A stretch of DNA of 64,000 bases from a virus. The notes under the pieces were generated by a model. It did not search any database. It was not told where the DNA came from and worked only from the letters and a program-made list of their open reading frames with translations. The position numbers and the translations under genes were made by a program. Shown here in pieces: positions 3 to 30,090 of this stretch (position 1 is the stretch's first letter; each line of letters begins with the position of its first letter). The stretch lies in IMG/VR virus record IMGVR_UViG_3300020196_000003. One strand, 5' to 3'.

Positions 3-113
3 AGTAATTTGGCATTAAATTGGACTGTAGATAGTTATATTATATTGGCGGGTGATGTTGATAACGCATCAGATATATTAAATTGTCAATGGATAAGAAT
101 TACAAATGGCTAA
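3..113 (+). CDS. 3' end of a hypothetical protein, tandem paralog of 106..621 (partial)
   Basis: Frame 3 reads SNLALNWTVDSYIILAGDVDNASDILNCQWIRITNG*, matching the C-terminus of the next ORF (TTNWTTDQYLIVSGSVVSTSDTLSCQWIKASNG*). Its stop overlaps the next start (ATGGCTAA). Confidence 0.75.
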   Translation, partial: SNLALNWTVDSYIILAGDVDNASDILNCQWIRITNG

Positions 114-621
114 AATAATCGGGTATAATGTTGGTGTTAAATATAAAGTTGTAACCACTACAACACCTGCGGGTAGTGTAAACTCAATTTCTAATACTTT
201 AATTAATTCATTGTTAATTCCTGCAAATACATTTTCTTCAGGAGACATTGTTACGATAGAAACTTGTTTAACAAAAAGTGCAACTAATAATACTTTTAGT
301 TTTTATTTTTATGTTAATACATCCGCAACACTTGTTGGTGCGACTTTAGTTGCAACAAACACATCAGTTGCAAGTAATGTAAGAGCGGCTCAACTTTATC
401 GTAGACTTGCAGTCGATGTTGCTTCGGGTAGTGGTAATGGCACAATAATAATAAACACATCAATAGCTGCGAGAGATGATATAGGTGTCACAAATTATAC
501 TACAGGGTTTTCTACTTTAACAACTAATTGGACTACTGACCAATATTTAATTGTTTCAGGTTCTGTTGTTAGTACATCAGACACACTTAGTTGTCAGTGG
601 ATAAAGGCTTCGAACGGTTAA
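106..621 (+). CDS. Ser/Thr-rich beta-strand protein, putative virion/fibre component
   Basis: 171-aa ORF, very S/T/N-rich, paralog of the upstream ORF. Function inferred from composition only. Confidence 0.55.
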   Translation: MAKIIGYNVGVKYKVVTTTTPAGSVNSISNTLINSLLIPANTFSSGDIVTIETCLTKSATNNTFSFYFYVNTSATLVGATLVATNTSVASNVRAAQLYRRLAVDVASGSGNGTIIINTSIAARDDIGVTNYTTGFSTLTTNWTTDQYLIVSGSVVSTSDTLSCQWIKASNG

Positions 622-3567
622 CTATCTATTATCTATGTAAATTATTACTTCATTATAATATTCAATGAAGTGTTCGTTCCATAAATCCCATTTTATGTCA
701 ATACCATCAACAGAGAAAACTTGGTAATTTGGAAAATTTTTAAGGTAAGTGTTTCTAAATTTTCTAAAGTTTTCTTTACTTCCTTCATAATAATTTTCAT
801 TTAAGTGCCACTCTCCTACAATTTTTTTTACATTATTTTTAATAAACTCATAATTATCATCCGTAAAAATATCGTATTCACCACCCTCACAATCGGTTTT
901 TAAAAAATCAATTTTATCTATATTGTATAAGTTCAAAAATTTTGCAAAAGTAATACTTTCCATTTCATTTTGTGTACCCTTTACTGAGTTGAAAAGTCTG
1001 TCGTTTTTGGTAAGACAATCACTGTTCGATATTCCTTTCATGATATGTGTCACAGGGTTTCCTATTGTATTTTTTACAAGTGTTGGAAAAAGTTCTTTAC
1101 AAGGTTCGAAACAAAAAATGTGTTTTGGTTTTTTATGTAATATTGAATAAGTAAATGGCCCTAAACTTGCACCAATATCCAAAACAATGTCACCCTCCTC
1201 AACCTCGAAAAATTTTTCATATATTTTATGTTCAAAAATTTCCTTTTTTATCGTCTCACTACACCACTCGTTATTAGTTCCCCAATCAAATAAGACCTCA
1301 TGTACATGATGTGTATTTTCTTCTTTATTTATAATCTTATCTATTTCTTTTATCACCATTTCAGATGTTATTTGTTTTGAACATTCAAACATTTTTTCAC
1401 TTCCTTTATGTAAAGGACACCAATTCCAATCACCGGCATCTAACCTGTCCCAATTAAAACATCCATGACATACATCTTCATTTATGACTCTATATGTATC
1501 CAAAGTTGTTTCTGTCCATTTTTTACTAAATCCCGAAATAAGAACTATTGGTAACTTACAAGCCCAAGCCAACCATGAAAGGCCTGAACCGAGACCTACA
1601 AAAAATTCACATGTTGAAAGTTCATTTATTACTTCTTGTAAATCACCCCCATTGTATATTTTAACACCTTTTGGATAATAGTTACCCATATAACCATTTC
1701 CTTCTTTTGAATAAATTACACATTCATATCCAAGTGAATTCAAATAATCAACAACTTCTTGCCAACCATTTTTGTTATTCCAATATTTTGCTTGAGCTGT
1801 TGAGTGAAAACCAATACCTGCTTTTTTCTTTTTTGAAACCTCAGGAAGATTAAGTTTTGGTCTTATTTCATTATAGTCTAATCCAAGAATATCAGTTGCA
1901 GTTTTTTGTAGTGGTTGAAGTTTAAAATCATTTGGATGTCTATTTTGATTAAACTTACCACTTTCATTATAGTACCATCCAAGTTGATATTGTGCAAAGA
2001 TATTATAAACAATAACCCCTGGCTCAACAAACTCTATTTCAGGGTATTGGTCAACAAACAAACTATTTAAAAAAGTTGATACAATGAGTTTGCAATTATG
2101 TTTTTTTCTAAATTCTTCGCAGTAAGGCATCCAAGCCAAAGTGTCCCCTAATGACTTTGAGCCAAACGATATATATACTCTTTTATTTTCTAAATTTAAT
2201 ATATCTGAAAAAACAACATTTCCATTTTCTTTAATTTCAGTTTTCCATGCTGTAAAATATTCTCTATTAAGTTTGACCCAAGAATTCATATCAATATTGT
2301 TGTTATAAATTATATTATTTTTTTCATCATAAAATGCAACTTCAAATTTTGAATTGCCGTCACCTACTATTTCAAGATAAGGGTTTACAACAAAATGTTG
2401 GTTTATTTTATAATCCTTATCAATCTTTTTGTTTTCAACAAAATCACAATTTTGTACTTTGTTATAAAACTTAAATAACTGATTTCCAAAACTTTCTTCT
2501 TCTTTGATAATGTAAGTTTTTTTGTCCTCGATTAATTGAATTAATTTTTTTGAAATATCTTCGAAGTTATTTGAATCAATTGGAGTAATGTAGTCATCAA
2601 ACATTCCCATGTATTGAGGTAAATTTCTTGTTAAAATTTTAAGACCATAACTTATGGACTCACGAACCACAAGAGGATTACACTCAACTAATGAATTAAA
2701 CATTAAAACATCTGATGCAATCATAAAGGATTCAACATCATTTCTTTCACCCCAAATGGTTACGTTAGATGGTAAGTTTTCCATGAGTGGACCCCAATAG
2801 TATTCAAAATTTTCGGCCTGATTTCCAACAAAATGGAATTGAATGTTTGGATGAGTTTTTTCTAAAATACGAGCAATTTCAATACCTTCTTTTTGATTTT
2901 TTCCTTCTGTCCATAACCCAACATTAAGAACATGGGTTTTTGTTAAATCTAAACCTAATTGTTCTCTTCGATTAATTTTTTCAATCAACGGAACTTTATG
3001 TTCTGTTTTTGAAATTGTGTTTTTGTGGTATAAATAACTCACCTTATCCTCCAATGGATATGTAATGACTTCTTTAGGTGATTGTTTTTTATTATAAAGA
3101 TTTTCTAAATGATATGGCGTTACAAAACAATAATAATCTGGTTCAAAATTTTTATTGTTATTTGCATTGTACCAAATATTATGACAAGACTCAACAATTT
3201 TATAAGACCTATTGTTATTATAAATCTCGTTTAAAATATTAAGAGGTATTTTGTTAAAACTTTCAAAACCTTCAGGTACTTCTTCGAAATGAACAATATC
3301 TATATTGTTATTTTTTATTATATCAAATAACTCTATTTTTTTTTCTTTTTCTGTAAAAGAACCAAGAGAAATGAAATGATTATTTCCTAACAAATCTATA
3401 ATTTTATTTCTTTGTACCAAATAAATTGTGCTAAACTGCGAATATTCAACCAAATATACTTCAATTTCATTTTTGAATTTTTGCAAAGATTCAATTCTTT
3501 TTAATACAAATTGTGGCATCCCTCCTGTTGAAAGGTGAGGAACCACATACATCAACTTTAATTTCAT
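622..3567 (-). CDS. Fusion: GT4-type glycosyltransferase + autotransporter O-heptosyltransferase (TibC/Aah-like) + FkbM methyltransferase
   Basis: N-term GT-B motifs (PHLSTGG, KNQ, ECNPLVVRES). Middle SLGDTLAW...GLGSGLSWLAWA...CHGC-x13-WCP-x9-ECS, the four-Cys iron-finger pattern of TibC/Aah. C-term VLDIGASLG...FLKTDCEGGEYDI...VGEWH of FkbM. Confidence 0.8.
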   Translation of the reverse strand: MKLKLMYVVPHLSTGGMPQFVLKRIESLQKFKNEIEVYLVEYSQFSTIYLVQRNKIIDLLGNNHFISLGSFTEKEKKIELFDIIKNNNIDIVHFEEVPEGFESFNKIPLNILNEIYNNNRSYKIVESCHNIWYNANNNKNFEPDYYCFVTPYHLENLYNKKQSPKEVITYPLEDKVSYLYHKNTISKTEHKVPLIEKINRREQLGLDLTKTHVLNVGLWTEGKNQKEGIEIARILEKTHPNIQFHFVGNQAENFEYYWGPLMENLPSNVTIWGERNDVESFMIASDVLMFNSLVECNPLVVRESISYGLKILTRNLPQYMGMFDDYITPIDSNNFEDISKKLIQLIEDKKTYIIKEEESFGNQLFKFYNKVQNCDFVENKKIDKDYKINQHFVVNPYLEIVGDGNSKFEVAFYDEKNNIIYNNNIDMNSWVKLNREYFTAWKTEIKENGNVVFSDILNLENKRVYISFGSKSLGDTLAWMPYCEEFRKKHNCKLIVSTFLNSLFVDQYPEIEFVEPGVIVYNIFAQYQLGWYYNESGKFNQNRHPNDFKLQPLQKTATDILGLDYNEIRPKLNLPEVSKKKKAGIGFHSTAQAKYWNNKNGWQEVVDYLNSLGYECVIYSKEGNGYMGNYYPKGVKIYNGGDLQEVINELSTCEFFVGLGSGLSWLAWACKLPIVLISGFSKKWTETTLDTYRVINEDVCHGCFNWDRLDAGDWNWCPLHKGSEKMFECSKQITSEMVIKEIDKIINKEENTHHVHEVLFDWGTNNEWCSETIKKEIFEHKIYEKFFEVEEGDIVLDIGASLGPFTYSILHKKPKHIFCFEPCKELFPTLVKNTIGNPVTHIMKGISNSDCLTKNDRLFNSVKGTQNEMESITFAKFLNLYNIDKIDFLKTDCEGGEYDIFTDDNYEFIKNNVKKIVGEWHLNENYYEGSKENFRKFRNTYLKNFPNYQVFSVDGIDIKWDLWNEHFIEYYNEVIIYIDNR

Positions 3568-3620
3568 AATTTGAAAATAATTTATTCATATTATTTGTGA
3601 AGTTTCTTACATTTTAAGTG

Positions 3621-4607
3621 ATGAAAAAAGTTTGTTTGGATTTATCTCAATCAAGAGCTCTTGGTGATACATTATGTTCAACACCAACGATTAGAAAATT
3701 ATATAATTCTTATAATCAAAAAATTTCCATTATAACTCACCACAAAGAAATTTTTAAAAACAATCCATATGTTGATGTTATTTTCGATGTTGATGTGGAA
3801 AATCTAACAGATGAGTATGAAATTTTTAATTCCTTTGATGTTTTTTATAAACCAAATGGTGTTTGTAATAAACATAATGTTATGGATATACGACAATTTC
3901 ATGCAATTAATCTTGGGTTCATGTTAACAAAAAATGAAATGACCTTAGATTATATTCCATCACAAACTTCAATTATGAAAGAAATTCCAAGAAAATATGT
4001 TTTAATTCATCCCGTACAGAATTGGAATTCAAGAACTTGGTCAATTGATAATTGGAGGGTACTAACAAAATTATTAAACGAGCAAAATATAAATGTGGTT
4101 TCAATTGGAAAAAATTCATCTGAGTTTGGAGGTTCAAATGTGGAAAAACATGTTTTTGATTTTGATATTGATTTGGGGGTTAATTTAATGAACAAAACAA
4201 CTTTAGATGAAACATGGAACTTGATTGAATATTCATTGTGTTTTGTTACAATGGACTCAGGACTTTTACATTTGGCAGGAACAACCGATGCTCAAATAAT
4301 TCAACTTGGAAGTTCAATAAACTATGAATTTAGAGCTCCTTATAGAAATGGTTCACAAGATTACAAATATTCTTACGTTGGTGGTGGTTGTAATTTGGCA
4401 TGTGCTTCTGATATGAAACATGGGGTAAAAGAATGGGGGTCAATTCAAGGGATACCCCCACTTGTTAATTGTTTAGAAAATAAAAAATCATTTGAATGTC
4501 ATCCTACGGTATTACAGGTATATAGAAAAATAATGGAATTACTGCAGTCTGTATTTATAATATATGGCAACATTCAAGACATGAATTTTTTTCAAGTCAA
4601 AGTTTAA
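3621..4607 (+). CDS. GT9-family (heptosyltransferase-like) glycosyltransferase with C-terminal Cys cluster
   Basis: ALGDTLCSTP, RTW, VTMDSGLLHLAG motifs typical of GT9; C-terminal CNLAC...C...ECHP. Confidence 0.75.
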   Translation: MKKVCLDLSQSRALGDTLCSTPTIRKLYNSYNQKISIITHHKEIFKNNPYVDVIFDVDVENLTDEYEIFNSFDVFYKPNGVCNKHNVMDIRQFHAINLGFMLTKNEMTLDYIPSQTSIMKEIPRKYVLIHPVQNWNSRTWSIDNWRVLTKLLNEQNINVVSIGKNSSEFGGSNVEKHVFDFDIDLGVNLMNKTTLDETWNLIEYSLCFVTMDSGLLHLAGTTDAQIIQLGSSINYEFRAPYRNGSQDYKYSYVGGGCNLACASDMKHGVKEWGSIQGIPPLVNCLENKKSFECHPTVLQVYRKIMELLQSVFIIYGNIQDMNFFQVKV

Positions 4608-5178
4608 TTTTTCTTTGGTTTGAATTTTTTTAAGTATTGATGGTTTTTTGTTTTCAATTGGGTATTGAAGAACTTTTTTATAAACTTTTTCTAATTCGAA
4701 CGTTTTTAAATGATATGGAGTTACAAACAAATATGAGTCAGGACGAAATTTTCTGTTTTTTGGATCAAACCAAATGTTATGACATGTCTCAACAATCTTC
4801 CAAGTTCTTTTGTTATCATATAACTCGGTAAGAATACTAATTGGAATTTGATTGAAACTTTCAAACCCTTCAGAAATTTCTTCAATGTGAACAATATCAA
4901 TTTGATTTTTTTTTATGATATCAACTAACTTATTTTTTTTTTTCGATATGGTTTGGTGTTCCCAAAGAATAAAAATTATCTTCACCGATTAGGTCTATTA
5001 TTTTATTTCTTTGGACAACATATTGATTACCAAAATAAGAATATTCAACAACGTTTACTTTAAAATTATTATATAAAGATTGAATTCTTTTCAATGCAAA
5101 TTGGGGCATCCCACCTGTTGATAAGTGAGGAACAACGTATAATATATTAATTTTTATCGATAGAAAATTTTGTTTCAT
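4539..5178 (-). pseudogene. Frameshifted and truncated paralog of the GT4 domain of 622..3567
   Basis: ORFs 4930..5178 and 4539..4985 align consecutively with the N-terminus of the 981-aa protein (YVVPHLSTGGMPQF; IVHIEEISEGFESFN; HVLNV). Frameshift at T11 (4933-4943); homology stops at HVLNV. Confidence 0.75.
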
Positions 5179-5271
5179 TTAACTTAATAATAAAAAACAT
5201 TTAAAAAAAATCATTTATTTATTATTAATTTCGAACTATTTGAAATTAAAATCGATCTTTTACTTAAAAAA

Positions 5272-5694
5272 TTATTGTGTAATACACGGATTCCAACTTG
5301 GTGTTGGTGTTGGACTGTTGCTCACGGTAGGGGTTGGAGTTGGGGTTGATGTTGTGGTTGGTGTTAATGTTGGAACTTTACAAGGATCGATAGATGGTGT
5401 TGGTGTTATCGTTGAAGTTGGAGTTGGTGTGGGGGTTTTTGTTGGAGTAATAGTCGGAGTTGGTGTAGGAGTCGGTCTAACAACATCTAAAAAATAAGGA
5501 CAATTAGAAAAAACAGGTTTGATAGTATATGATCCATATATTTCTCTTGGTGGATATAATAAATGAGGTTCAAATAAGAATGGTAATGTTATTTCGTGTA
5601 AATTAATGACAACATCATCATTGTCTGGTTTGAATAACACTTCTGCTAATTCACCATCATAAAAAACACTTCGAATTATTATATTTTGACTCAT
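5272..5694 (-). CDS. Pro/Thr-repeat (mucin-like) putative virion protein
   Basis: 140 aa with long (PT)n tracts; starts immediately after the stop of 5695..7881 (TAGATG). Confidence 0.65.
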   Translation of the reverse strand: MSQNIIIRSVFYDGELAEVLFKPDNDDVVINLHEITLPFLFEPHLLYPPREIYGSYTIKPVFSNCPYFLDVVRPTPTPTPTITPTKTPTPTPTSTITPTPSIDPCKVPTLTPTTTSTPTPTPTVSNSPTPTPSWNPCITQ

Positions 5695-7881
5695 CTATGT
5701 ATTAATTATTGTGTATGTAAAATCATTAGGGAAACATGATGATGTGTCACATACAGGACAATCGGGGTCGAACATGCTAAACTTATCTTTTAATATTTTA
5801 AAATTGTGTTTCACCTCAGGACTAGAAATAGGTTGAGTATAAAATCTAAATTGAGAAATTGCACCGTCTAAAGTTCCTGCAAAATTTTCTTCCAATAAAA
5901 TGTGTGTTTTCAATTTATTTAAAGTTGTTGCACTCAATATGTTTTCAGGAAAACATTCGGGATCTTGAATATAATACCCTTCTGACGTATCGGTACAAGA
6001 AGATAAGGTAAGATTTTCATGAAGTCCTTGAGTTCCCCCACCCCAAGACATATTGAACGGAACGGCCACTTGTCTTTCTTTGTCGGTGTCTAAAGCCCTC
6101 GGAATTACTTCTTCAAAATTTTCGATAGTATAAAATATTCTTCCATTGATATAGATTTTTAATCTACCCAACCTAAATTTAGTTTCATCTAACCAAATTC
6201 GATTTAGTTGGACTATCTTTACTTGTTGTGGGATTTCATATCCATTTGTGTAAGGAGGTTGGATTAAGGATACTGTGTTATTTGCCAAACTTTGTAAAAA
6301 CTCTACTCTTGTTATTTGATCTAATCCACCAAACCATCTGAGGTCACAAAAATCTATAAAAGTATAACGTTCGAAAACAACATCCAATAAGAACCAATGC
6401 TCTAAGTTTAACCAAGCTGGATTTACTTCTAAACAATAAGGATAAATTGGTGGCGTACAAATATCTTGTATTGTATATCCAGTGACATAAGTTTGACCTG
6501 TTACACATGTTCCAGTAGTTTGACATTCTCCTGTAATTTTCAAAACTCGAATTCCAATACCAGGATTTTTTGGGTCGCCACACAAACGGATAGAAAAATT
6601 ATTTGACAAAGCGTCAAATTTTGGATCTTTTTCACAAGTATCCTCTATTGATTTAAAGACATTGGAAGGTTCAGTTGGCGGACATCCACAAGTATCACAA
6701 CCACAACTTGGACATGCCGTACAACAAGGTTTTGTTGGGCATGGTATCACATCAGAATATGTATCACATGATGGAGTTGGTGATGGAGTAGGTGTTGGTG
6801 TTGGTGTCGGGACAATTATTGTTTCACACTTATGTTCGAAACACATCCATCCACAGGTTTTACAGGGGTCCAAATCACAACCGCATCCACATGTCAGTTT
6901 TGTTTCATAATTCCCATTACATAAGTTACATCCGTAATTCACATGAGGATCGTATTCACCACCAATTGGTCTCGGCGGATATACGTAAATACATCTACTA
7001 TTTTTGATATCATAATTACAACAAGCACAAGTTTCGAAACAATTAGTTAAACCACTTGTAACTCTCGTATAATTTGAGTCGCATTTTGGTGAACCATCGG
7101 CATAATGATAAAATTTATTTTCTGCTCTTGTTCCCAAATAGAATAACGTATTTTTGTTTTTTGGATAAATTTCATTCAAAGTTGTATATCCAACAGGTGG
7201 GTTGTATTCATTAAAAAATCTTGGTTTTAACAAAACTTCAACTGACCATCCTTTATTGAATCGTTCAGGTAATATTTCATAGTCATAACCAAATAATTTA
7301 TAAAAACCTTGATAAAATCCACCATATAGTTCAATGTATCTCCCAACTTGGGGACTATACTTAGAAACCATTTCGTAAGAAGTGTAGTAAGTAACACCTG
7401 AAAATTTATTGTTCTTTGGTACATTTGTTGTTGTTTGAATAAGTTTCATTCTTCGGTCATAAAACATTCTATTAAATTTTACTTCATCACTAAAAAGTCC
7501 GTTTGTAAAATTTAATAATTCACCTTCAATTAAATTTACCAATCCGTTATCAACTCCCGTTAATCCAATATCACAAGTTGTTCCAGCGGTGAAACATTCA
7601 ATTCTTAAATCCTCGGGTTGATAAAAAGTTTCAGATATAACAACATTTTCAAAATTGTAGGACCCATAGTTTAATGTTAAATTTAAGGAAGATAGAGGGC
7701 TATTCAAATCAATATTAATGGGTAATTTTTTACCGTCATTAACACCTATTATATATGGTGAAAAAATAACTTCTTGATTGAAGTCGACCTCATCGGAAGC
7801 TAAAGACATATCTTGTCCATCATAAAGGACTTGTAATTTTAACTTTGGGTAAATATATTGATTTATATTTTGATAAGACAT
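5695..7881 (-). CDS. Cys-rich, PT-linker putative virion protein with possible LamG/ConA-like C-terminus
   Basis: 728 aa with dense Cys clusters, a PTPTPTPTPSPTP linker and a LKIYING...GAISQFRFYTQPISSPEV LamG-like ending; preceded by the TATTTAT motif. Confidence 0.6.
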   Translation of the reverse strand: MSYQNINQYIYPKLKLQVLYDGQDMSLASDEVDFNQEVIFSPYIIGVNDGKKLPINIDLNSPLSSLNLTLNYGSYNFENVVISETFYQPEDLRIECFTAGTTCDIGLTGVDNGLVNLIEGELLNFTNGLFSDEVKFNRMFYDRRMKLIQTTTNVPKNNKFSGVTYYTSYEMVSKYSPQVGRYIELYGGFYQGFYKLFGYDYEILPERFNKGWSVEVLLKPRFFNEYNPPVGYTTLNEIYPKNKNTLFYLGTRAENKFYHYADGSPKCDSNYTRVTSGLTNCFETCACCNYDIKNSRCIYVYPPRPIGGEYDPHVNYGCNLCNGNYETKLTCGCGCDLDPCKTCGWMCFEHKCETIIVPTPTPTPTPSPTPSCDTYSDVIPCPTKPCCTACPSCGCDTCGCPPTEPSNVFKSIEDTCEKDPKFDALSNNFSIRLCGDPKNPGIGIRVLKITGECQTTGTCVTGQTYVTGYTIQDICTPPIYPYCLEVNPAWLNLEHWFLLDVVFERYTFIDFCDLRWFGGLDQITRVEFLQSLANNTVSLIQPPYTNGYEIPQQVKIVQLNRIWLDETKFRLGRLKIYINGRIFYTIENFEEVIPRALDTDKERQVAVPFNMSWGGGTQGLHENLTLSSCTDTSEGYYIQDPECFPENILSATTLNKLKTHILLEENFAGTLDGAISQFRFYTQPISSPEVKHNFKILKDKFSMFDPDCPVCDTSSCFPNDFTYTIINT

Positions 7882-10692: not shown

Positions 10693-10756
10693 TCATAAGT
10701 AAGACGGGAAATGACTATTAAAAAATATTTTTCCTTTATTAGAATTGAAACCAAAC

Positions 10757-11971
10757 ATGAAAGAAAAAATCAAAATTTTAGTACTACCTTCAGACGCATC
10801 AGGAGTAGGAAAATATCGGTCAGTCGACCCACACATTATGTTACAAAATTTATATCCTGACGATTTCCACGTCGATATAGATTTCACACCGAAAGTTAGT
10901 GATTTTAATTATTGGAAAAATTACCAAATTGTTCATTTTCATAGAAATTTTGGAACCTTAGAACAATGTCCAACAATTATCAAAGCCCTTAAAAGTATGG
11001 GGATTATTGTTATTGCCGACCTCGATGATTATTGGTTACCAACAAAAGAACACCCTATTCACAATTTAATTTTGGCAGACAAAATGAATTCAAAAATTAT
11101 CGAGAATCTTAAGGCTGCCGATTATGTAACAACCACAACTGAAATATTTGCAAATGAAATTAGAAAAATTAACAAAAATGTTATTGTTTTTCCAAACGCA
11201 ATTGACCCGAAAGAAGGACAGTTTAATAAACCAACATTACCTTCAGACAAAATAAGAGTTGGTTGGTTAGGCGGTTCTTCTCATTTACATGATCTTAAAT
11301 TATTAGATGGAATGGTTGGCAAACTATCAAGTCAACAGGATAAATTACAATTTTATTTGTGTGGATTCGATATACGAGGTTCCGTAACCGAAATTAATAA
11401 AGACACTGGAGAAAAAAAACAAAGACCTATTAAACCTGAAGAAACTGTTTGGGCAAGGTATGAAGAGATTTTTACAAATAATTATAAAATTGTTTCTCCT
11501 GAATATAAATTATTTTTGAATCAATATAAGGAAGAAGATTTTCCTAACCTTTACAATGAAAATTATGTTCGTGTTTGGACTAGACCAACTGACTCATACG
11601 CAAAAAATTATTCAAAATTTGACATCTCATTAGCACCAATTAAAAACCACATATTTAATAGAATGAAATCCCAACTCAAAGTTATTGAAGCGGGATTTTA
11701 CAAAAAAACCATAATTGCATCAAATCTTGGACCGTACACAATTGATTTGAAACACGCCCTAAAAAATGGTCAATTTACGGATGGAAATGCACTTTTAGTC
11801 GATGAAGTAAGAAATCATAGTGATTGGGTCAAAAATATTAAAAAATTAGTTGATAATCCAAATATGATTGTAGATCTTGGCGAAAAATTATATGAAACCG
11901 TTAAAGACAAATATGACTTAAACTTTGTGACTCATCGAAGATCCGAATTTTACAAATCCTTAATTAAATAA
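10757..11971 (+). CDS. GT-B (GT4-like) glycosyltransferase
   Basis: GVGKYR, DLDDYW, VGWLGGSSH, DISLAP...FNRMKSQLKVIEAG motifs. Confidence 0.8.
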   Translation: MKEKIKILVLPSDASGVGKYRSVDPHIMLQNLYPDDFHVDIDFTPKVSDFNYWKNYQIVHFHRNFGTLEQCPTIIKALKSMGIIVIADLDDYWLPTKEHPIHNLILADKMNSKIIENLKAADYVTTTTEIFANEIRKINKNVIVFPNAIDPKEGQFNKPTLPSDKIRVGWLGGSSHLHDLKLLDGMVGKLSSQQDKLQFYLCGFDIRGSVTEINKDTGEKKQRPIKPEETVWARYEEIFTNNYKIVSPEYKLFLNQYKEEDFPNLYNENYVRVWTRPTDSYAKNYSKFDISLAPIKNHIFNRMKSQLKVIEAGFYKKTIIASNLGPYTIDLKHALKNGQFTDGNALLVDEVRNHSDWVKNIKKLVDNPNMIVDLGEKLYETVKDKYDLNFVTHRRSEFYKSLIK

Positions 11972-11973
11972 AA

Positions 11974-12699
11974 ATGATTAATATTCCAATAACAAAAATT
12001 TTATTTTTAGATATCGAAACCGTTGGTGGATGTGCTGATTACCAAACGTGTATCAATTTTAATCCCAAAGTTGCCGAACAATTTGATAAATACTTTGATT
12101 GGTTTTTGAAAAGATTTCCTGAAGATAAAGAATCGGGTAAAGAAAAAACAACTGAAGAACACATGGATATTGTTTTCAAAAAACGAGCGGCACTTGTTCC
12201 TGAGTTTGCAAAGATTGTTTGTGTATCCATGGCATTTGTTTTAGATAATGGAGAAACAAAAAGACAAACATTTTTAGGTGATGATGAACATAAACTACTT
12301 ACTGAAGTAAGAGACCTTTTGAACCGTTGTCATAAATTAGATTTTTATTTATGTGGACATAATTTAAAAAACTTTGATATTCCAATGTTAGCAAAACGAA
12401 TGATTGTAAATGGAATTATGCCATCTAAAATTCTACCGTCATACGATACTAAACCATGGGAGGTAAAAGCTATCGATACAAAAGAAATTTGGCAATACGG
12501 TGCATATACATCAATTGGATCTTTAGATTTAATGTGTGCTTGTTTAGACATCCCAACACCAAAAGATGGTGAGGTCAATGGTGGTATGGTACATGAGGCG
12601 TATTGGAGTCATAATAGATTAAAAGAAATCGCCGAATACTGTGAAAAAGATGTTAAAGTTTTGGTTGATACAATAATAAAATTAAAATCATTGAGATAA
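11974..12699 (+). CDS. 3'-5' exonuclease (DEDD, PolB-exonuclease-related)
   Basis: FLDIET, GHNLKNFDIP, YCEKDV. Confidence 0.85.
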   Translation: MINIPITKILFLDIETVGGCADYQTCINFNPKVAEQFDKYFDWFLKRFPEDKESGKEKTTEEHMDIVFKKRAALVPEFAKIVCVSMAFVLDNGETKRQTFLGDDEHKLLTEVRDLLNRCHKLDFYLCGHNLKNFDIPMLAKRMIVNGIMPSKILPSYDTKPWEVKAIDTKEIWQYGAYTSIGSLDLMCACLDIPTPKDGEVNGGMVHEAYWSHNRLKEIAEYCEKDVKVLVDTIIKLKSLR

Positions 12700-13313
12700 T
12701 GAGTAAAGAACTAAATAATAACGAAGAACAAGAAATAAACGCTCTTATAAAAATGTTAGAAGATCTAAATTCGAATGATAACGGAACTAGTGAGATTAAT
12801 TATAATTCCTTATTTGACACAATTGGTTTAGACTTTCAAGAATTAGAAGATGAAATTAAATCATATGTCCCGAAACTTGACGTAAGTTATAAAAAATCAA
12901 ATGAAAATACGATTGATCCAAAATATGTTTATGAGTCAGATTCTGGTTTTGATTTATATAGTGTTGAAGATAAGTGGATTCATCCTTTTGATAGGATCCT
13001 TATTCCTACGGGTCTTCATATTGATATACCTGATGGATACGAGATTCAAGTAAGATCTAAAAGTGGTTTAGCACTTAAACAGGGTTTAATGGTTTTGAAT
13101 TCACCAGGAACTGTAGATCAAGGATATTTAGGAGAAATACAAGTTATACTTTTCAATACCACAAATCAAAAAGTTAAAATCGAAAAAGGTCAAAAAATTG
13201 CTCAAGCGGTTTTATGTCCTGTGGTGTCGGGCAAATGGGTAAACCTAATTTCAAAAAATAAATTAGAAAATAAAGACCGAAATAATAATGGTTTTGGGTC
13301 AACTGGTTTATGA
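12699..13313 (+). CDS. dut: Trimeric dUTPase with N-terminal acidic extension
   Basis: SGFDL, RSKSGLA, GTVDQGYLGE, KIAQ, RNNNGFGSTG motifs. Confidence 0.92.
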   Translation: MSKELNNNEEQEINALIKMLEDLNSNDNGTSEINYNSLFDTIGLDFQELEDEIKSYVPKLDVSYKKSNENTIDPKYVYESDSGFDLYSVEDKWIHPFDRILIPTGLHIDIPDGYEIQVRSKSGLALKQGLMVLNSPGTVDQGYLGEIQVILFNTTNQKVKIEKGQKIAQAVLCPVVSGKWVNLISKNKLENKDRNNNGFGSTGL

Positions 13314-14689
13314 TTACAATAGGATTTAGTACAAAAACACCGAAACCAAATTTTATACAACAAATCAAAGAAACTTGTGGTATTGATGACGCCGAGATCA
13401 TAGAAAAAATAAATAATGGTGAAAAATCATTATCGGTTGTTTATAATGAAATATTAAATGAAAGTTCCAATAACATTGTTATATTATGCCATGACGACAT
13501 TATTTTTGAAAAAAAATATTGGGCAAAACGTGTGATTGAGCATTTCCAAAAAAGACCAGAGTATGGTATTTTGGGTGTTGCAGGTACAAGGTATTACCCT
13601 GAATCAGGTATGTGGTGGGAAGTATCATCTGAAATGATAGGTCAAGTTTATCACCAACACAACGGTAAAAAATGGTTATCAAAGTATAGCGAACCATTTG
13701 GTAATAAAGTTTTACAATCGGTTATTGTTGACGGTGTTTTCATGATGATACAAAAAGATAAAATATCCAAACAGTTCAATGAAAATGTTCAGGGATTCCA
13801 TTTTTACGATACTACGTTTACATTCGAAAATCATTTAGAGGGTGTTAAGGTTGGTGTAATATCTAATATTCCAATAACACACTTATCAATTGGTCAAACT
13901 AACCGACAGTGGGAAGAAAACAGAATTAAATTTATAGACACATTTAAATATAAATTACCTCAAATAATTGGTACTGATTTACCTACGTTTACACATGACT
14001 CAAAACAACCTTTAGTTTCTGTAATTATGCCGATCCATAATTACGGTAACATGTTTCAAAAATCATTAGAGTCAGTATTCAATTCGACTTATAAAAATAT
14101 TGAGTTAGTAATTGTGAATGATGGGTCTAACAACCAATATATTCTTAATAAACTTGAGAGTTTATCAAATCACCCAAACATTAAAATTATACATCAAAAA
14201 AATGCCGGTCCTTCTTCAGCAAGGAATACTGGTATTAAAAATTCTACTGGTGAGTATATTTTACCTTTAGATTCTGATGACATGATATCACCAGAATATA
14301 TCCAAACTTGTGTTAATTTAATTGAAAAAAATAATAAATTGAGTCCGGTGTATTGTGATACAAACCATGTTGGTCAAATGAACGGGGTTGAGAAGAGACC
14401 TGAATGGTCTAAAGAACGTTTAATACAAGGGCCATTCATTGTTAATTGTTCTATGTTTACTAAAGAAGCCTTCAGCAAATGTGGTGGTTATGACGAAAAT
14501 ATGAAAGGTTGGGAAGATTATGACTTATGGGTACGAATGATGAAATCAGGATATGTAGGTAAAAGAATACCAAAACCATTATTCACTTATTTTCATCACG
14601 AAAAGGATGGAACTGTATCTACCGAAGCTAATAAAAATAGTCAAGAACTTTATGACTATATTATGAAAAAAAATAATTTACAAAATTAA
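13310..14689 (+). CDS. Two-domain GT2 glycosyltransferase
   Basis: N-term CHDD...FHFYD; C-term VSVIMP...VNDGS...SARNTG...LDSDD...WEDYDLW. Confidence 0.85.
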   Translation: MITIGFSTKTPKPNFIQQIKETCGIDDAEIIEKINNGEKSLSVVYNEILNESSNNIVILCHDDIIFEKKYWAKRVIEHFQKRPEYGILGVAGTRYYPESGMWWEVSSEMIGQVYHQHNGKKWLSKYSEPFGNKVLQSVIVDGVFMMIQKDKISKQFNENVQGFHFYDTTFTFENHLEGVKVGVISNIPITHLSIGQTNRQWEENRIKFIDTFKYKLPQIIGTDLPTFTHDSKQPLVSVIMPIHNYGNMFQKSLESVFNSTYKNIELVIVNDGSNNQYILNKLESLSNHPNIKIIHQKNAGPSSARNTGIKNSTGEYILPLDSDDMISPEYIQTCVNLIEKNNKLSPVYCDTNHVGQMNGVEKRPEWSKERLIQGPFIVNCSMFTKEAFSKCGGYDENMKGWEDYDLWVRMMKSGYVGKRIPKPLFTYFHHEKDGTVSTEANKNSQELYDYIMKKNNLQN

Positions 14690-14695
14690 AATAAT

Positions 14696-15319
14696 ATGAC
14701 ACTTAACGATTTAACAGACTCAATTTACGTTATAAATCTGAAAGAAAGAACTGACAGAAAAGAACACATTTTAAATCAATTAGAAAAAATAGGATGCAAA
14801 GATTATATTTTATTTGAGGGTGTTAACGGTAAAAAAATTGAGAATCCCACAAAAATGCCTTCAGGTATGTTTGGTTTAATTAAGACTTATATAAACATGT
14901 ATAATGATTGGAAAAAAACACCTAAAGATAGTATTCTAATTATTGAGGATGATTGTATCTTCGTTGACGATTTTAATGAAAAATTAAAGGAGTATATGGA
15001 TCATGTTCCTGAAAACTGGGACATGTTGTATTTTGGGGCAAATCACAATTATCATGTCGGTGAAAAAACAGAAGTTGTTAATGAAAAATGTATCAAACTT
15101 AATAAGAGTTTTTCGGCACATTGTGTTATACTAAAATCTTATGTGTTTGAGGAATTGATGTTTGCACTACAAACATATTCAATTGAGAATGATGTAATGA
15201 TGGCAAACCTCCAAAGAAAATATAAGGCGTATTCAAGTGTTCCAGGTTTAACTTCACAAATTGTTAGTTTTTCTGATATACAAAATCAAGTAATGGATTA
15301 TAATTGGTTGATAAAATGA
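14696..15319 (+). CDS. GT25 glycosyltransferase
   Basis: YVINLKERTDR...LIIEDD...WDMLYFG. Confidence 0.85.
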   Translation: MTLNDLTDSIYVINLKERTDRKEHILNQLEKIGCKDYILFEGVNGKKIENPTKMPSGMFGLIKTYINMYNDWKKTPKDSILIIEDDCIFVDDFNEKLKEYMDHVPENWDMLYFGANHNYHVGEKTEVVNEKCIKLNKSFSAHCVILKSYVFEELMFALQTYSIENDVMMANLQRKYKAYSSVPGLTSQIVSFSDIQNQVMDYNWLIK

Positions 15320-16128
15320 TTGTAACTTCGTATTTGATGGGTGGGTTAGGAAATCAAATGTTCCAAATCGCCAAAGCAAAAACGGAAGGATTTAAAAATA
15401 ACATTGATGTAGTTTTTAGACCTATTTCATTTATTCCTATGGAGGGAAATCAACCAACAAAATATATGAATAACATTTTTAGGAATTTAAAATTTGATAA
15501 CATTACAGAACCACTAATAAGAATATCAGAACCATCTTGGTCGTATAATAAAATTGAACCGTTGTATCATACGTCCACTGAGTTTTTTGGTTACTTTCAA
15601 AGTAGTAAAAATTTTGGGGATTTTAAAAATCAAATTAAAAGTTTATTCCAACCAACTGAAGAGTTTATAAATAAAATAAAAAAATTATATCCTTTTGTTT
15701 TCAAAAATAACTCAATATCCATTCATGTTCGTAGGGGTGATTACTTAGGTGTTAGTGATATTTTACCTGTGGTTGATAAATCATATTTAAATGAGTGTCT
15801 TAGTCTAATTGATAAAAAAGGTTATATTTTTATATTCTCTAATGACAAAGATTGGGTCGAGAAGAATCTAAATTACCCCAATTCAACCATTGTTAATAAA
15901 TTAGATGATTATGAAGAATTATGGATGATGAGTTTATGTAATCATAATATTATGTCTAATTCTTCATTTTCTTGGTGGGGATCTTATCTTAATTTAAATC
16001 ACAATAAAAAAGTATTTGTACCATCAATTTGGTTTGGGCCTAGAGGGGAAAAACACTACCAAGATATATACGAAAATAAATGGATAAAAATAAATGTTAA
16101 ATATGAAAACGGAAAACTCATTGTCTAA
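15316..16128 (+). CDS. GT11 alpha-1,2-fucosyltransferase-like
   Basis: GGLGNQMFQ, GYFQS, SIHVRRGDY, NSSFSWWG. Confidence 0.9.
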   Translation: MIVTSYLMGGLGNQMFQIAKAKTEGFKNNIDVVFRPISFIPMEGNQPTKYMNNIFRNLKFDNITEPLIRISEPSWSYNKIEPLYHTSTEFFGYFQSSKNFGDFKNQIKSLFQPTEEFINKIKKLYPFVFKNNSISIHVRRGDYLGVSDILPVVDKSYLNECLSLIDKKGYIFIFSNDKDWVEKNLNYPNSTIVNKLDDYEELWMMSLCNHNIMSNSSFSWWGSYLNLNHNKKVFVPSIWFGPRGEKHYQDIYENKWIKINVKYENGKLIV

Positions 16129-16879
16129 TACATCAATCTCTGACGAAAACAACTTTAAAAACATATGTAAATTTGCATGTGAAGATAATTATATTTTTAA
16201 TAATTTTAAATCTAACCCTTCATTTAATCAGATATTAGAACACACAACATATGAACAAGGAGTTGGGTATATAAACGAAATAGAAAAATTAACAAAGATA
16301 GATATGTCGTTAATTGAAAAATTTAAAACTAACGATATACAAGGTAACCCAAAACAGTTTTGGTATAAAGAACCTTATGGTAATGTATCCCCATCAACAT
16401 TAAGGTATATTAAGGTTTTAAACGATTTAATCACATTATTCGGTAACCTTGACGATATGTCAATTGTGGAAATAGGTGTGGGTTACGGAGGACAATCAAA
16501 AATTATACAAGATCATTTTAATATAAAAGAATATAACTTTGTTGATTTACCTGAAGTTTTGGGACTCACAAAAAAATATTTAGATATGTACGATTACAAA
16601 AATCTTAATTTTTTAAATTTTAATAATCTACCAAATAAAAAATACGATTTGATAATATCAAATTATGCTATTACTGAGTGTAGTAAAGAAATGCAAGACA
16701 TTTACATCGAAAAGATAATTTATAATTCAAAGCATTGTTATATCACCGGAAACGATATTGGTGATCATTTTAATTTAAAAAATTACAATAAAGATGAGTG
16801 GGGTAAAAAAATACCTAACTCAATTTTTACAGAAGAAAAACCATTAACTCACCATAAAAACTATATATTATATTTTTAA
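16103..16879 (+). CDS. Putative sugar O-methyltransferase
   Basis: SPSTLRY, VEIGVGYGG, VDLP, LIISNYAITE (SAM-dependent fold). Confidence 0.7.
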   Translation: MKTENSLSNTSISDENNFKNICKFACEDNYIFNNFKSNPSFNQILEHTTYEQGVGYINEIEKLTKIDMSLIEKFKTNDIQGNPKQFWYKEPYGNVSPSTLRYIKVLNDLITLFGNLDDMSIVEIGVGYGGQSKIIQDHFNIKEYNFVDLPEVLGLTKKYLDMYDYKNLNFLNFNNLPNKKYDLIISNYAITECSKEMQDIYIEKIIYNSKHCYITGNDIGDHFNLKNYNKDEWGKKIPNSIFTEEKPLTHHKNYILYF

Positions 16880-16882
16880 ATT

Positions 16883-17677
16883 ATGGATATTTTTAATATG
16901 AAAAGTCAAATTTTTCTACACAATGGGTCATCAACTGTTAACCAAACACCGAAGTATTTTAAATGGGATTTTTTTAATGGTACAGGTGAGTATGATTTCT
17001 ATATCGATGGTGGGATTATTAATGGTATTAATAATAGATTAGACGGTAATAAAAAAGTTTTATGGACACTAGAATCACCGTACTTTAATAATGGGGTTTT
17101 TGATTATATAAAAAATAATTTAAAATTAGTTTTAGACGTTTTTGATTATATTTTCACATATAATGAGGAGTTATTATCGCTTAGTCAAAAGTTTTATTTT
17201 GTACCCGCAATGGGGTCATGGATAAAAGAGCCTATGATGTGTGATAAAAAAAAATTAGTATCAATGGTAACGTCAAATAAAACTTTTACAGAGCAACAAA
17301 AACTTAGGTTTGATTTCGCCAACAACCATAAAGATAAGATTGATGTGTATGGTAGAGGATTTAATGAAATACATAATAAAGAAGAAGGTTTATGTGATTA
17401 TATGTTTTCCGTTTGTATTGAGAACGCAACAATGGACACATATTTTACTGAAAAAATATTAGACTGTTTTGCAACCGGAACAATACCAATTTATAAAGGG
17501 TCTAAAAAAATAATTGATTATTTTGATAAAGATGGTATTCTTTTTTTAGATGAGATAAATATTAACGATTTAAGTGAAGATTTATATCTGTCAAAAATAG
17601 AGTCAGTTAAAAAAAATCTATATTTATGTAAAGAATTTATATTACCTGAAGATATTATATATAAAAAAATAAAATAA
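16883..17677 (+). CDS. GT10 alpha-1,3-fucosyltransferase-like
   Basis: YMFSVCIEN...YFTEKILDCFATGTIPIY GT10 signature. Confidence 0.8.
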   Translation: MDIFNMKSQIFLHNGSSTVNQTPKYFKWDFFNGTGEYDFYIDGGIINGINNRLDGNKKVLWTLESPYFNNGVFDYIKNNLKLVLDVFDYIFTYNEELLSLSQKFYFVPAMGSWIKEPMMCDKKKLVSMVTSNKTFTEQQKLRFDFANNHKDKIDVYGRGFNEIHNKEEGLCDYMFSVCIENATMDTYFTEKILDCFATGTIPIYKGSKKIIDYFDKDGILFLDEININDLSEDLYLSKIESVKKNLYLCKEFILPEDIIYKKIK

Positions 17678-17678
17678 A

Positions 17679-18368
17679 ATGAAAGTAGTTAGTTTTTCAC
17701 TTTTTGGTTCGGATCCACTATACACCATAGGTGCTGTTAAGAACTCTGAATTAATGTTTAAAATATTTCCGGAATGGAAAATGTGGGTTTACCATGACGA
17801 CACAGTACCAAATGAAATATTAGATAAATTAAAAAACAATAATGTTAAACTAATAAAATCCGAAAATAATGGGTTTTATAGGTCTATGTGGAGATTCTAC
17901 CCCTGTGGAAATAAATCTGTAGAATACTTTATATCTAGAGATGCTGACTCAAGGATTTCTCTAAGAGATAGGGCATCGGTATATGAATGGATAGATTCTG
18001 GAAAAGATTTTCATATAATTAGAGACCACCCAGTTGGTCATTCGTGGGTTATTAATGCGGGTATGTGGGGTTCTAAAGGTGGGTCGATAGATATAATACC
18101 CTTGATAGACCGATATAATAATAATCCCCACGAAAAGTTTATTGACCAAATATTTTTAAGGGATATCATTTACCCGATGACTAAAACATCTAGATTAGTG
18201 CACGATGAGTACTTTAATTATGAAGGGGATTGTCGTAAAATAATGAGAGATAGAAAAATAGATGACTTCGCATTTATTGGTGAATCTATAGACATTAACG
18301 ATCAATCAAGGTATACTACAAATCCAGGGGATCAAAGAAAAACAATAATAGAAAGATACACAAATTAA
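17679..18368 (+). CDS. Putative GT-A fold glycosyltransferase-like protein
   Basis: SFSLFG, MWRF, SRDADSR, RDHP, AGMWG, DQIFL; located in the glycan cluster. Confidence 0.5.
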   Translation: MKVVSFSLFGSDPLYTIGAVKNSELMFKIFPEWKMWVYHDDTVPNEILDKLKNNNVKLIKSENNGFYRSMWRFYPCGNKSVEYFISRDADSRISLRDRASVYEWIDSGKDFHIIRDHPVGHSWVINAGMWGSKGGSIDIIPLIDRYNNNPHEKFIDQIFLRDIIYPMTKTSRLVHDEYFNYEGDCRKIMRDRKIDDFAFIGESIDINDQSRYTTNPGDQRKTIIERYTN

Positions 18369-18373
18369 AGAAA

Positions 18374-19068
18374 ATGGATTTTACTTTTGGTATAGTGACT
18401 AATAAACATATAAGTGATTTGTTTGATGTGATACACTCAATAGACCAACAAAAAATCCCTAATTATGAAATTATAATAGTAGGTGGGGATATGGGGTCAT
18501 ATAACCATCCAAAAATTAAACATATACCGTTTAATGAATCTTCAAAAACAGGATGGATAACAAAAAAAAAAACTTAATAACTCAAAATTCTATTTTTGAA
18601 AACATAGTTTTTCTACATGATTATATCACATTTTCAGATGGCTGGTACAGTGGTCAGATATTATCAGGTAATTATTTTGACATAAGAATGGATATTATAT
18701 TAAATAAAGACGGTAGTAGATTCAGAGATTGGTGTCTATGGCCTCACAATCAAATAAATCACGGACAATCAACTGAAGACATAATTAAAAGTTCTGCACT
18801 ATTACCATATGAAATAAATAATTTAAATCAATTCCAATATATATCGGGAAGTTACTGGATTTCAAAAAAGAAAGTGATGGTAGAGTTTCCACTAAATGAG
18901 GATTTGACATGGGGAGAGGCGGAAGACGTGGAATGGTCTAAAAGAGTGAGGTTACATTATACATTTACCATGAATACTAAATCTATAGTACAATTTAAAA
19001 AACAAAAATCAGTGGTTTTTAACCTCACAACAAATGAAATAATAAAAAAATTAGATGAATTAGTATGA
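18374..19068 (+). pseudogene. GT2-like glycosyltransferase split by a frameshift in an A11 tract
   Basis: 18374..18577 (FTFGIVT...GWITKKK) continues in another frame as KNLIT...VFLHDY...EDVEWS. One extra A at 18562-18572 would restore a single ORF. Confidence 0.75.
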
Positions 19069-20420: not shown

Positions 20421-20422
20421 AA

Positions 20423-20962
20423 ATGAATATCGTCATCCCAACATATAATAAACATTATCAATACAACATTAATTTTTTAGATTCATTTGATTTATACTGT
20501 TTAGATAAAAAAAACGATTATGTAATGTTAATTGTAGGTGAGGTTGATTGCCGAGTTCACCTACCAAAACAAATTCAATTGCAAAGTAGACCAATTGATG
20601 AGGTAATTATAGAATGTGTTGATAGATTTTTTAGAACCTATTTAGACCTAAAAGAAAGGGGATATAATGTAATTGGTTGGGGTGGCCACCCATCAACCAT
20701 ATCAGGACCTAGCGAAAACCCCTCAGAACCTATTATTGGGGATTGTCGTTTTAGAAATACAATAAGTTTAAAATGGGACTCATATATAGAATCTTTGTTT
20801 ATTGAAAACAACATACCGCACGTTTCAATAATTAAAGACCTTATAGGTATTGACGGACTAACTAAAATGAATTACTTTATGGATTATTGTCATTTAAAAC
20901 ATGACTTAGTTAAAGAAATCATACAAACAAAATTTAAAGAAATTGGAATCTATGTCTACTAA
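20423..20962 (+). CDS. Chimeric ORF: GT-like N-terminus joined to an SGNH-like C-terminal half
   Basis: MNIVIPTY (GT2-like start) switches after DKK to GEVDCR...DYCH; no GDS catalytic motif. Confidence 0.45.
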   Translation: MNIVIPTYNKHYQYNINFLDSFDLYCLDKKNDYVMLIVGEVDCRVHLPKQIQLQSRPIDEVIIECVDRFFRTYLDLKERGYNVIGWGGHPSTISGPSENPSEPIIGDCRFRNTISLKWDSYIESLFIENNIPHVSIIKDLIGIDGLTKMNYFMDYCHLKHDLVKEIIQTKFKEIGIYVY

Positions 20963-21650: not shown

Positions 21651-21671
21651 ATAAACAATTAAATAAATAAA

Positions 21672-21980: not shown

Positions 21981-21981
21981 T

Positions 21982-22226: not shown

Positions 22227-22230
22227 CATT

Positions 22231-23121: not shown

Positions 23122-23133
23122 CTTACTGAATTT

Positions 23134-24659: not shown

Positions 24660-24666
24660 TTTCACC

Positions 24667-27398: not shown

Positions 27399-27402
27399 AA
27401 TT

Positions 27403-29024: not shown

Positions 29025-29029
29025 TTAAT

Positions 29030-30088: not shown

Positions 30089-30090
30089 TT

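Follow-up and report, generated by a model that had tools for sequence, protein, structure and literature searches.

A large uncultured lake phage encodes a three-enzyme protein whose central domain is, by its sequence matches, a member of the family of bacterial autotransporter heptosyltransferases (BAHT), the group typified by the bacterial enzymes TibC and Aah. The gene lies near the start of the 64,000-nt stretch IMGVR_UViG_3300020196_000003 (hereafter the window), whose locus at positions 622-7881 we re-examined by computation only. Because the same fusion sits beside giant fibre genes in related phages, it probably sugar-coats the phage's own fibres. On balance, we lean towards the view that this module glycosylates proteins, most likely phage fibres, in the cytoplasm of the infected host. 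To our knowledge, the only role described for BAHT enzymes is the virulence-associated modification of autotransporter adhesins in bacteria, and a literature search found no paper on phage BAHT-like enzymes.

The enzyme and its three domains are arranged as follows:

622..3567, minus strand: three-enzyme fusion GT4 + TibC/Aah-type (BAHT) + FkbM, 981 amino acids (aa), a single open reading frame (ORF) with Pfam, NCBIfam and PDB matches
2428..3567, minus strand: GT4 (retaining GT-B) domain, aa 1 to ~380, with PF00534 and the EX7E motif E295...E303
1333..2352, minus strand: TibC/Aah-type domain, aa 406-745, with TIGR04414 and an alignment to TibC (4RAP)
772..1185, minus strand: FkbM-family S-adenosylmethionine (SAM) methyltransferase domain, aa 795-932, with PF05050, TIGR01444 and VLDIGASLG at aa 795

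An earlier, sequence-only reading had described this ORF as a 981-residue fusion of GT4, heptosyltransferase-like and FkbM domains, and database searches matched all three. The GT4 domain is recognized by PF00534 (Glycos_transf_1) at aa 199-351 (4.8e-16; 59 bits against a cutoff of 26.4), and its EX7E motif is kept in 22 of 24 full-length fusions. At the other end of the protein, PF05050 (FkbM/Methyltransf_21) covers aa 797-932 (7.6e-10; 39.6 bits against 22.7) and TIGR01444 also exceeds its cutoff (2.3e-12; 47.6 bits against 37.7), with the SAM motif VLDIGASLG conserved across the full-length fusions. Pfam sees the middle domain merely as a weak GT9 match. TIGR04414 (hepto_Aah_TibC), the NCBIfam equivalog model for autotransporter strand-loop-strand O-heptosyltransferases, matches it with 281.1 bits against a cutoff of 200 (E 1.2e-83; aa 406-745 on model positions 27-374), and a phmmer search of PDB sequences aligns it with TibC (4RAP/4RB4) over 340 residues (1e-63). 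The best lipopolysaccharide (LPS) model, LPS heptosyltransferase I, gives only 17.9 bits against a cutoff of 185. The earlier reading had proposed exactly this comparison and had held that grouping with LPS-core GT9 enzymes would count against it; no such grouping is seen. Judged by these profile scores, the middle domain is a BAHT family member and not an LPS-core GT9 enzyme.

The same conclusion is reached from the active site. Residue roles established for TibC (PMC4358343) were transferred to the fusion through a HMMER alignment of TibC 4RAP, and conservation was read from a MAFFT alignment of 154 non-redundant domains, comprising 151 environmental or viral relatives and three bacterial BAHTs from plasmids. 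In TibC, Asp110 is the catalytic base, Thr226 and Lys230 hold the beta-phosphate, Trp305 contacts O4 of the sugar, and four cysteines (C339/342/358/370) form a 1Fe-0S iron finger (PMC4358343). The base corresponds to D475 of the fusion, the last residue of an SLGD motif (aa 472-475), and is Asp in 151/151 relatives. T590, K594 and W665 occupy the positions of Thr226, Lys230 and Trp305, and each is invariant among the 151. The SLGD motif and a four-Cys finger had been noticed in the earlier reading, and both align with TibC: C700, C703, C717 and C729 fall on the four finger cysteines and are likewise invariant. The fusion-TibC alignment begins at TibC residue 40; at the thumb tip, F265/V266 are replaced by Y/M, preceded by a three-residue deletion. 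The fused flanking domains might not fit into a ring dodecamer of the TibC type.

Two other positions have changed. In TibC, Arg286 bonds N1 of adenine, which is the stated basis of specificity for ADP-sugars, and P300 determines stereoselectivity at C6 of the heptose (PMC4358343). Arg286 corresponds to V646 in the fusion, in a local alignment that is unambiguous (LQE-V in the fusion, LQE-R in TibC). This column reads V 100, L 32, R 9, I 4, S 4 and A 2 in the 151 relatives, such that 142 of them are non-Arg, and Arg is found in all three bacterial BAHTs aligned. P300 corresponds to G660, with Gly in 138 of the 151. An intact catalytic core combined with changed residues at positions 286 and 300 therefore points to a BAHT family member with an altered nucleotide pocket.

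Genomic context bears on the identity of the sugar donor as well. No heptose-pathway gene (GmhA, HldE or HddA-type) was found among the window ORFs scanned. Four recurrent neighbour families in relatives (fam1, 2, 5 and 10) were considered as a heptose pathway and rejected, NCBIfam giving aminotransferase fragments, a NeuD-type acetyltransferase and unknowns. The window carries a large set of glycan genes, all running in one direction from ~10.7 to 31.6 kb:

10745..31640, plus strand: glycan-synthesis island with GT2, GT25, GT11, GT10, a HAD + sugar-1-P nucleotidyltransferase fusion, DegT, a GNAT-GDP-mannose 4,6-dehydratase and an epimerase

This island could supply donors and extending enzymes to the module at 622-7881. 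Because Arg286 is replaced by V646, and because genes for GDP-mannose-derived sugars are present but no heptose pathway is found among the scanned ORFs, ADP-heptose is an unlikely donor, and we think that the donor is probably another sugar. The R286V exchange is compatible with a non-adenine nucleotide, and is no proof of one. As applied to the fusion, 'heptosyltransferase' is an annotation rather than a finding; a heptose donor appears doubtful, and these observations do not support the heptosyltransferase label of the earlier reading.

The identity of the acceptor is suggested by the neighbours of the enzyme. We called ORFs and compared neighbourhoods in 80 viral loci (numbered here with the prefix L), and the recurrent neighbour of the fusion in related loci is a gene whose giant product is recognized by Pfam Collagen (E 1e-61 to 4e-83). 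The products span 644-3263 aa, contain 32-49% Ser+Thr, and are built of Gly-X-Y repeats in which X is Thr or Ser, Y is Ser, Asn or Asp, and Pro is almost absent. The collagen-like gene is convergent with the fusion gene at a distance of 3-609 bp in seven loci (L002, L004, L005, L010, L012, L026, L034), and it lies 1.8 kb away in three others (L003, L007, L024), with three paralogous genes for fibre-tip knobs in between. In phages of 340-370 kb it is located 5 kb upstream of the fusion, which there sits beside terminase and tail-sheath genes. The association extends to other enzyme architectures, namely a split TibC+FkbM form (L048, 43 bp) and a stand-alone TibC domain (L061, 1.1 kb). The non-collagen part of the fibre protein weakly matches Bdellovibrio trimeric fibre proteins (8OND, 1.6e-4; 8OL4, 8e-4). 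The earlier reading had proposed a phage protein as the acceptor, and this recurrent linkage to fibre genes makes that the best reading.

A cultured phage exhibits the same arrangement. In Microcystis phage Mel-JY01 (PP395634; L001 2-3052, plus strand), the record opens within a collagen-like ORF, which has 202 Gly-Thr/Ser-Ser triplets and a length of at least 1016 aa; next come a 'structural protein' and then a 1227-aa FkbM...TibC fusion. GenBank has hypothetical proteins on the opposite strand of the collagen-like stretch. A 639-aa ORF of the window was tried as the counterpart of a 639-aa 'cytidylyltransferase-like' protein of Mel-JY01 and was rejected as unrelated.

Two further genes accompany the fibre module in some loci. 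A 98-aa Cys-containing protein, which may be an assembly or trimerisation factor, is encoded directly upstream of the collagen-like gene in L003 (17948-18244), L005 (12591-12887) and L034 (5479-5775), and none was seen in the window. A PF11397 'GlcNAc' transferase (2.6e-72) and an HtrL_YibB protein flank the module in L003 (7682-8926 and 5107-6774) and also occur in L002, L012 and L026; we take PF11397 to be the family of the cytoplasmic Skp1 hydroxyproline GlcNAc-transferase. A 408-aa glycosyltransferase of the window proved unrelated to the PF11397 enzyme of L003 and was rejected as its counterpart.

The residue at position 286 and the presence of a fibre gene appear to vary together. When non-redundant loci are limited to those whose downstream flank is 2 kb or longer, a collagen-like gene lies within 6 kb in 15 of 28 non-Arg loci versus none of 8 Arg-type loci; the hypergeometric chance of the latter count is ~0.007 by hand calculation, although the loci are related and this is no clean probability. 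The minority of viral domains that keep Arg286 (L036-L042, L076-L077) have an extra residue in the preceding loop and reside in large glycosyltransferase clusters. It is conceivable, as a long shot suggested partly by analogy, that the non-Arg branch is a viral lineage devoted to proline-free (Gly-Thr-Ser/Asn)n collagen-like fibres, with a donor that is not ADP-heptose (one candidate being a GDP-linked manno-sugar made by the phage's island), and that dense O-glycosylation of Thr and Ser lets the Pro-free helix fold and keeps it stable, so that the enzyme would serve as a fibre assembly factor. Galactosyl-Thr stabilises the cuticle collagen of Riftia.

On the other side of the fusion, a convergent gene encodes a small folded protein:

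106..621, plus strand: TNF/C1q-like jelly-roll fibre-tip knob, 171 aa, convergent with the fusion with abutting stop codons; AF2 model

The AF2 model (pLDDT 92) is a jelly roll. A Foldseek search with it gave no match at E<=0.001. VIA-align matches of Z 7.3-9.4, which are middling taken alone, include the chlamydial Pgp3 C-terminal domain, the short-tail-fibre CBD of cyanophage A-1(L), the tail chain of cyanophage A4, the Bdellovibrio Bd2734 fibre tip, TNF ligands, C1q, PRD1 P5 and the BclA C-terminal domain (Z 7.3). About half of 629 representative relatives (E<=1e-3) are stand-alone proteins of ~170 aa. The remainder carry the knob at the extreme C-terminus of proteins of 240-1119 aa whose N-termini look tail-fibre-like by eye, and 7 of 68 knob-family proteins contain classical collagen repeats. 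We regard the 171-aa protein as a fibre-tip knob because of these middling Z values together with the C-terminal position of the domain in fibre proteins. It had been described as Ser/Thr-rich, and this stands at 29% Ser+Thr; a mucin-like character does not, since the protein is a folded jelly roll with no mucin-like tract.

A second enzyme gene resides directly beyond the fusion:

3618..4607, plus strand: partner GT9, 329 aa, BAHT-like core without the N-terminal barrel; PF01075 and a profile-profile match to BAHT

The true start of this gene is likely the ATG at 3621. The protein is recognized by PF01075 (6e-16), and the earlier description of a divergent GT9 enzyme with its own Cys cluster is borne out, given that its LGD motif and four cysteines (C258/262/285/294) are invariant in 21 unique orthologues. 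In most close loci an orthologue of 64-71% identity stands next to the fusion, making this enzyme a conserved partner. In an hhalign comparison with the BAHT profile (96.3% probability, E 1.6e-9), 267 columns align, starting at the LGD motif and taking in the Cys finger. Its homology to BAHT enzymes, together with the content of the fusion, therefore gives the locus two BAHT-like enzymes, one GT4 enzyme and one methyltransferase. Its donor positions differ from those of TibC (T226->N, K230->R, W305->H, R286->T), and the partner probably handles a different sugar or site.

The partner enzyme is also where a host-directed role must be weighed. The module might be an auxiliary set that remodels the LPS core, an adhesin, an S-layer protein or the capsule, thereby blocking superinfection or otherwise altering the cell. 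Matches to GT9 in viromes are usually read as waaC/F/Q genes of LPS synthesis (PMC8066274), the LPS heptosyltransferase I model fits the partner slightly better than TIGR04414 does (38 against 31 bits), and the 20-kb glycan island is nearby. However, every LPS-model score is far under its cutoff (38, 32 and 31.5 bits for the partner against 185, 135 and 170), the fusion domain favours the BAHT model by 281 bits to 17.9, the partner is homologous to BAHT through the Cys finger, and the linkage to fibre genes is tight and recurrent. We consequently consider a host-surface target improbable.

Upstream of the fusion, the sequence-only reading had called attention to two neighbouring proteins. The remainder of the locus comprises:

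4539..5178, minus strand: decayed second copy of the N-terminal half of the fusion GT4 domain (aa 1 to ~225), split by frameshift and cut off against the 3' end of the GT9 gene
5272..5694, minus strand: 140-aa protein (W140) with a 70-aa N-domain and a PT-rich tail; phrog_15511
5695..7881, minus strand: conserved 728-aa Cys-rich protein (W728) with a 16-aa PT linker (aa 356-371, nt 6769-6816)

The decayed copy consists of a 148-aa ORF, 47% identical to aa 65-225 of the fusion, and an 82-aa ORF, which matches aa 1-77 at 60% identity; as we interpret these remnants, the locus has a recombination junction or scar on this side. W140 has a genuine PT-rich tail of ~65 aa (aa 73-135, nt 5290-5478). 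It corresponds to the first 139 residues of a 502-aa protein in L025 (80% identity) and is similar to the beginning of a 713-aa protein in L034, and thus the W140 gene is truncated. W728 contains 14% Ser+Thr and 5.2% Cys. The protein is recorded on contigs of up to 168 kb. It has more than 1600 homologues of 60-83% identity; many (e.g. P0306-P0381) are 943-989 aa long and have a papain-like Peptidase_C1 domain. It found no match in sequence or profile searches of Pfam, PHROG or PDB, and its AF2 model (pLDDT 41) is unusable. A language-model atlas gives a LamG lead (0.94), and W728 is possibly LamG-like. Because homologues of W728 head the same gene block as the fibre in L034 and L025, the protein may belong to the fibre module; it is not mucin-like.

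These two proteins had been put forward as the acceptors, and an explanation of this kind would have the enzyme prime PT linkers with heptose in the manner of mucins. PT tracts do exist in W140 (aa 73-135) and W728 (aa 356-371), homologues of both proteins occur in the same fibre gene blocks (L025 and L034), and PT linkers are O-glycosylated in other systems. Of the two proteins described as rich in PT, Ser or Thr, however, only W140 fits; W728 has one short PT linker and the modest Ser+Thr content given above. Moreover, W140 is a truncated remnant, and a decayed gene fragment stands between it and the enzymes, W728 lies beyond the recombination junction, and each family is found near the fusion in only 2 of the 80 loci, where the recurrent neighbour is instead the (G-T-S/N)n collagen-like fibre with its knobs. 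The Val at position 286 and the lack of a heptose-pathway gene among the scanned ORFs further disfavour heptose priming. These neighbours are therefore weak candidates for the acceptor role, and we judge this explanation to be unlikely.

Relatives of the fusion are widespread in viral sequence. The fusion matches 138 stretches in IMG/VR, and full-length three-domain relatives of 54-68% identity are present on many IMG/VR contigs of up to 373 kb. Other architectures include GT4+TibC, TibC+FkbM, stand-alone TibC, and forms of 1113-1527 aa. In the 201-641 aa length class of a set of 5.8 billion proteins, the TibC-like domain has 3950 matches at E<=1e-10, and the best 120 of those 3950 proteins are all metagenomic. 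Carriers in the annotated phage collection are Mel-JY01 and the 'uncultured phage' records LR756501, LR756503 and LR756504 (636-735 kb). A pattern scan of 185,579 species genomes yielded one locus, a broken copy on a contig of 56% GC (L085). There, a TibC-like gene in two pieces (4595-7128; 47% identity) is accompanied by a short (GSS)n ORF ~1 kb upstream; the contig is filed as a metagenome-assembled genome of Paceibacteria, and its housekeeping genes look proteobacterial by eye.

BAHTs of bacterial plasmids, found by tblastn, are 35-41% identical to the fusion domain and adjoin AIDA-type genes. Canonical BAHT loci (L082, L083) likewise carry an adjacent autotransporter, and a Gluconobacter BAHT adjoins a Hint-domain protein. 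No autotransporter was found in the window or in the viral loci, as the earlier reading had stated for the window, which is phage DNA by its gp23 capsid, portal and terminase genes. On this sequence evidence, the phage module is part of the known BAHT family, but it lacks both an autotransporter partner and the Arg that reads adenine.

Every characterised BAHT is a cytoplasmic enzyme that glycosylates proteins (PMC4358343), and a sequence of steps can be proposed for the phage module on this precedent. Within the cytoplasm of the infected cell, the BAHT-like domain would attach the first sugar to Ser or Thr of freshly synthesised phage fibre protein, the GT4 domain would then extend the glycan, and the FkbM domain would methylate the extended product. 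The partner GT9 would add another sugar or serve another site. The acceptor would most likely be the giant collagen-like fibre with its proline-free (Gly-Thr-Ser/Asn)n repeats; TNF-like knobs, including the protein at 106-621, would be possible further acceptors, and the donors might come from the phage's own GDP-sugar island.

Several points weigh against fibre glycosylation. First, its support is genomic throughout, and none of these fibres is known to carry a glycan. Second, known BAHT substrates are beta-helical passengers rather than collagen-like repeats. Third, the collagen-like fibre gene is not within the 64-kb window, and the fibre linkage is read from related loci; synteny among related phages is not independent evidence. 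Fourth, the rearrangement scars mean that the present gene adjacency in the window is partly accidental. Finally, among the more distant TibC-like loci, about half are flanked by no Gly-X-Y gene, and there the TibC-like gene resides inside large glycosyltransferase clusters.

This last feature invites another explanation, in which the product is a polysaccharide, free or bound to a carrier, that covers the virion or fibre without a covalent bond or by some other linkage, and the TibC-like domain does not act on protein. The genes of distant relatives are embedded among glycosyltransferases, aminotransferases and acetyltransferases, and Mimivirus fibrils do carry polysaccharides (PMC9614988). 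Nevertheless, every characterised BAHT is a protein O-glycosyltransferase, and the N-terminal barrel region and iron finger, which bind protein in TibC, appear from the alignment to be retained, so we attach little probability to this explanation.

The window as a whole (GC ~30%) encodes a T4-type major capsid protein (Gp23; 40022-41959, minus strand), a portal protein (46198-48012) and a large terminase (48825-50603). A megablast search of its first 20 kb against the phage collection found no DNA relative, and a scan for promoters and terminators gave a signal no better than shuffled sequence. The Gp23 domain occupies only aa 392-630 of the 645-aa capsid protein, leaving an N-terminal extension of ~370 aa. 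Just upstream of the capsid gene, a 546-aa protein (41989-43629, minus strand) contains ~13 tandem DDEDMEM copies and is probably an acidic scaffold or prohead-core protein; this repeat explains why GC and AT skew are extreme at 42-44 kb. Two chaperone genes lie back to back at 54871-58953: one encodes a full-length Hsp70/DnaK (622 aa, 862 bits), the other a double AAA+ disaggregase of the ClpB type (680 aa).

The glycan island also contains a dUTPase/dCTP-deaminase-like gene, which could be taken to indicate hypermodification of DNA, with the GT-B enzymes glycosylating modified bases of the phage genome. Phage GT-B enzymes are indeed known that place hexose or heptose on 5-hydroxymethylcytosine, but these DNA enzymes resemble T4 beta-GT and not BAHT (bioRxiv 10.1101/2023.12.21.572611). 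No TET/5mYOX, C5-methyltransferase or hydroxymethylase gene was found among the window ORFs scanned, and the linkage to fibre genes would go unexplained, making a DNA target very improbable. None of the alternatives accounts for the fibre linkage as well as fibre glycosylation does.

Environmental viral sequence contains BAHT family members in great abundance; here the family is joined to enzymes of extension and methylation and is linked with giant collagen-like fibres. If our preferred reading is true, large aquatic phages make glycoprotein fibres for themselves, in much the way that giant eukaryotic viruses do. GT9 matches in viromes that are counted as auxiliary LPS genes would need to be re-read, and glycobiology would gain a compact enzyme that primes, extends and methylates, possibly with a new donor specificity. 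Since Mel-JY01 is in culture and has the same arrangement, the idea of fibre glycosylation is directly testable.

Among known systems, TibC-TibA and Aah-AIDA-I of E. coli (PDB 4RAP/4RB4) share with the phage enzyme the catalytic Asp, the Thr/Lys pair, the Trp and the four finger cysteines. TibC and Aah are cytoplasmic and act on a fibrous, repetitive protein that is rich in Ser and Thr and whose gene is adjacent, and the proposed phage system would be alike in this respect. In contrast, the phage enzyme is virus-encoded, is fused between GT4 and FkbM domains, has no autotransporter, and carries Val and Gly in place of Arg286 and Pro300. Its neighbour is a collagen-like (G-T-S/N)n fibre rather than an AIDA-type beta-helix.

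Phages that glycosylate their own virions have been described. In the mycobacteriophages Che8, Corndog and Myrna, phage glycosyltransferases reportedly decorate Ser/Thr-rich tails of the phages' own structural proteins (Freeman and colleagues, 2023). Those enzymes are of the GT2 type, the acceptors are short C-terminal tails of capsid and tail-tube proteins, and the hosts are Actinobacteria. Both the enzyme families and the type of acceptor therefore differ from those of the phage BAHT module.

Glycosylated collagen-like surface fibres offer a nearer parallel. BclA of Bacillus is a collagen-like spore glycoprotein that bears rhamnose and anthrose on the Thr of GPT repeats, added by other enzyme families. 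It combines a Gly-X-Y surface fibre with a TNF/C1q-like C-terminal knob, the domain matched by our 171-aa model at the lower end of the Z range. Mimivirus likewise pairs Gly-X-Y surface fibres with dedicated glycosylation, as represented by L230 with collagen-like L71 and others (PMC9614988). L230, however, glucosylates hydroxylysine by means of a GT25-like domain, whereas the phage repeats are without Pro or Lys.

In function, by analogy, the module most resembles A064R of chlorovirus PBCV-1, together with the glycosylated collagen-like fibres of Mimivirus and Bacillus spores. A064R is one viral polypeptide that unites two glycosyltransferase domains with a sugar methyltransferase domain, and it builds and methylates a virion-protein glycan independently of the host (PMC9614988). 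The folds are unrelated, the A064R enzymes being GT-A-like rhamnosyltransferases. A064R also differs from the phage fusion in that it extends an N-glycan of the capsid protein without priming it, and in that its virus is eukaryotic.

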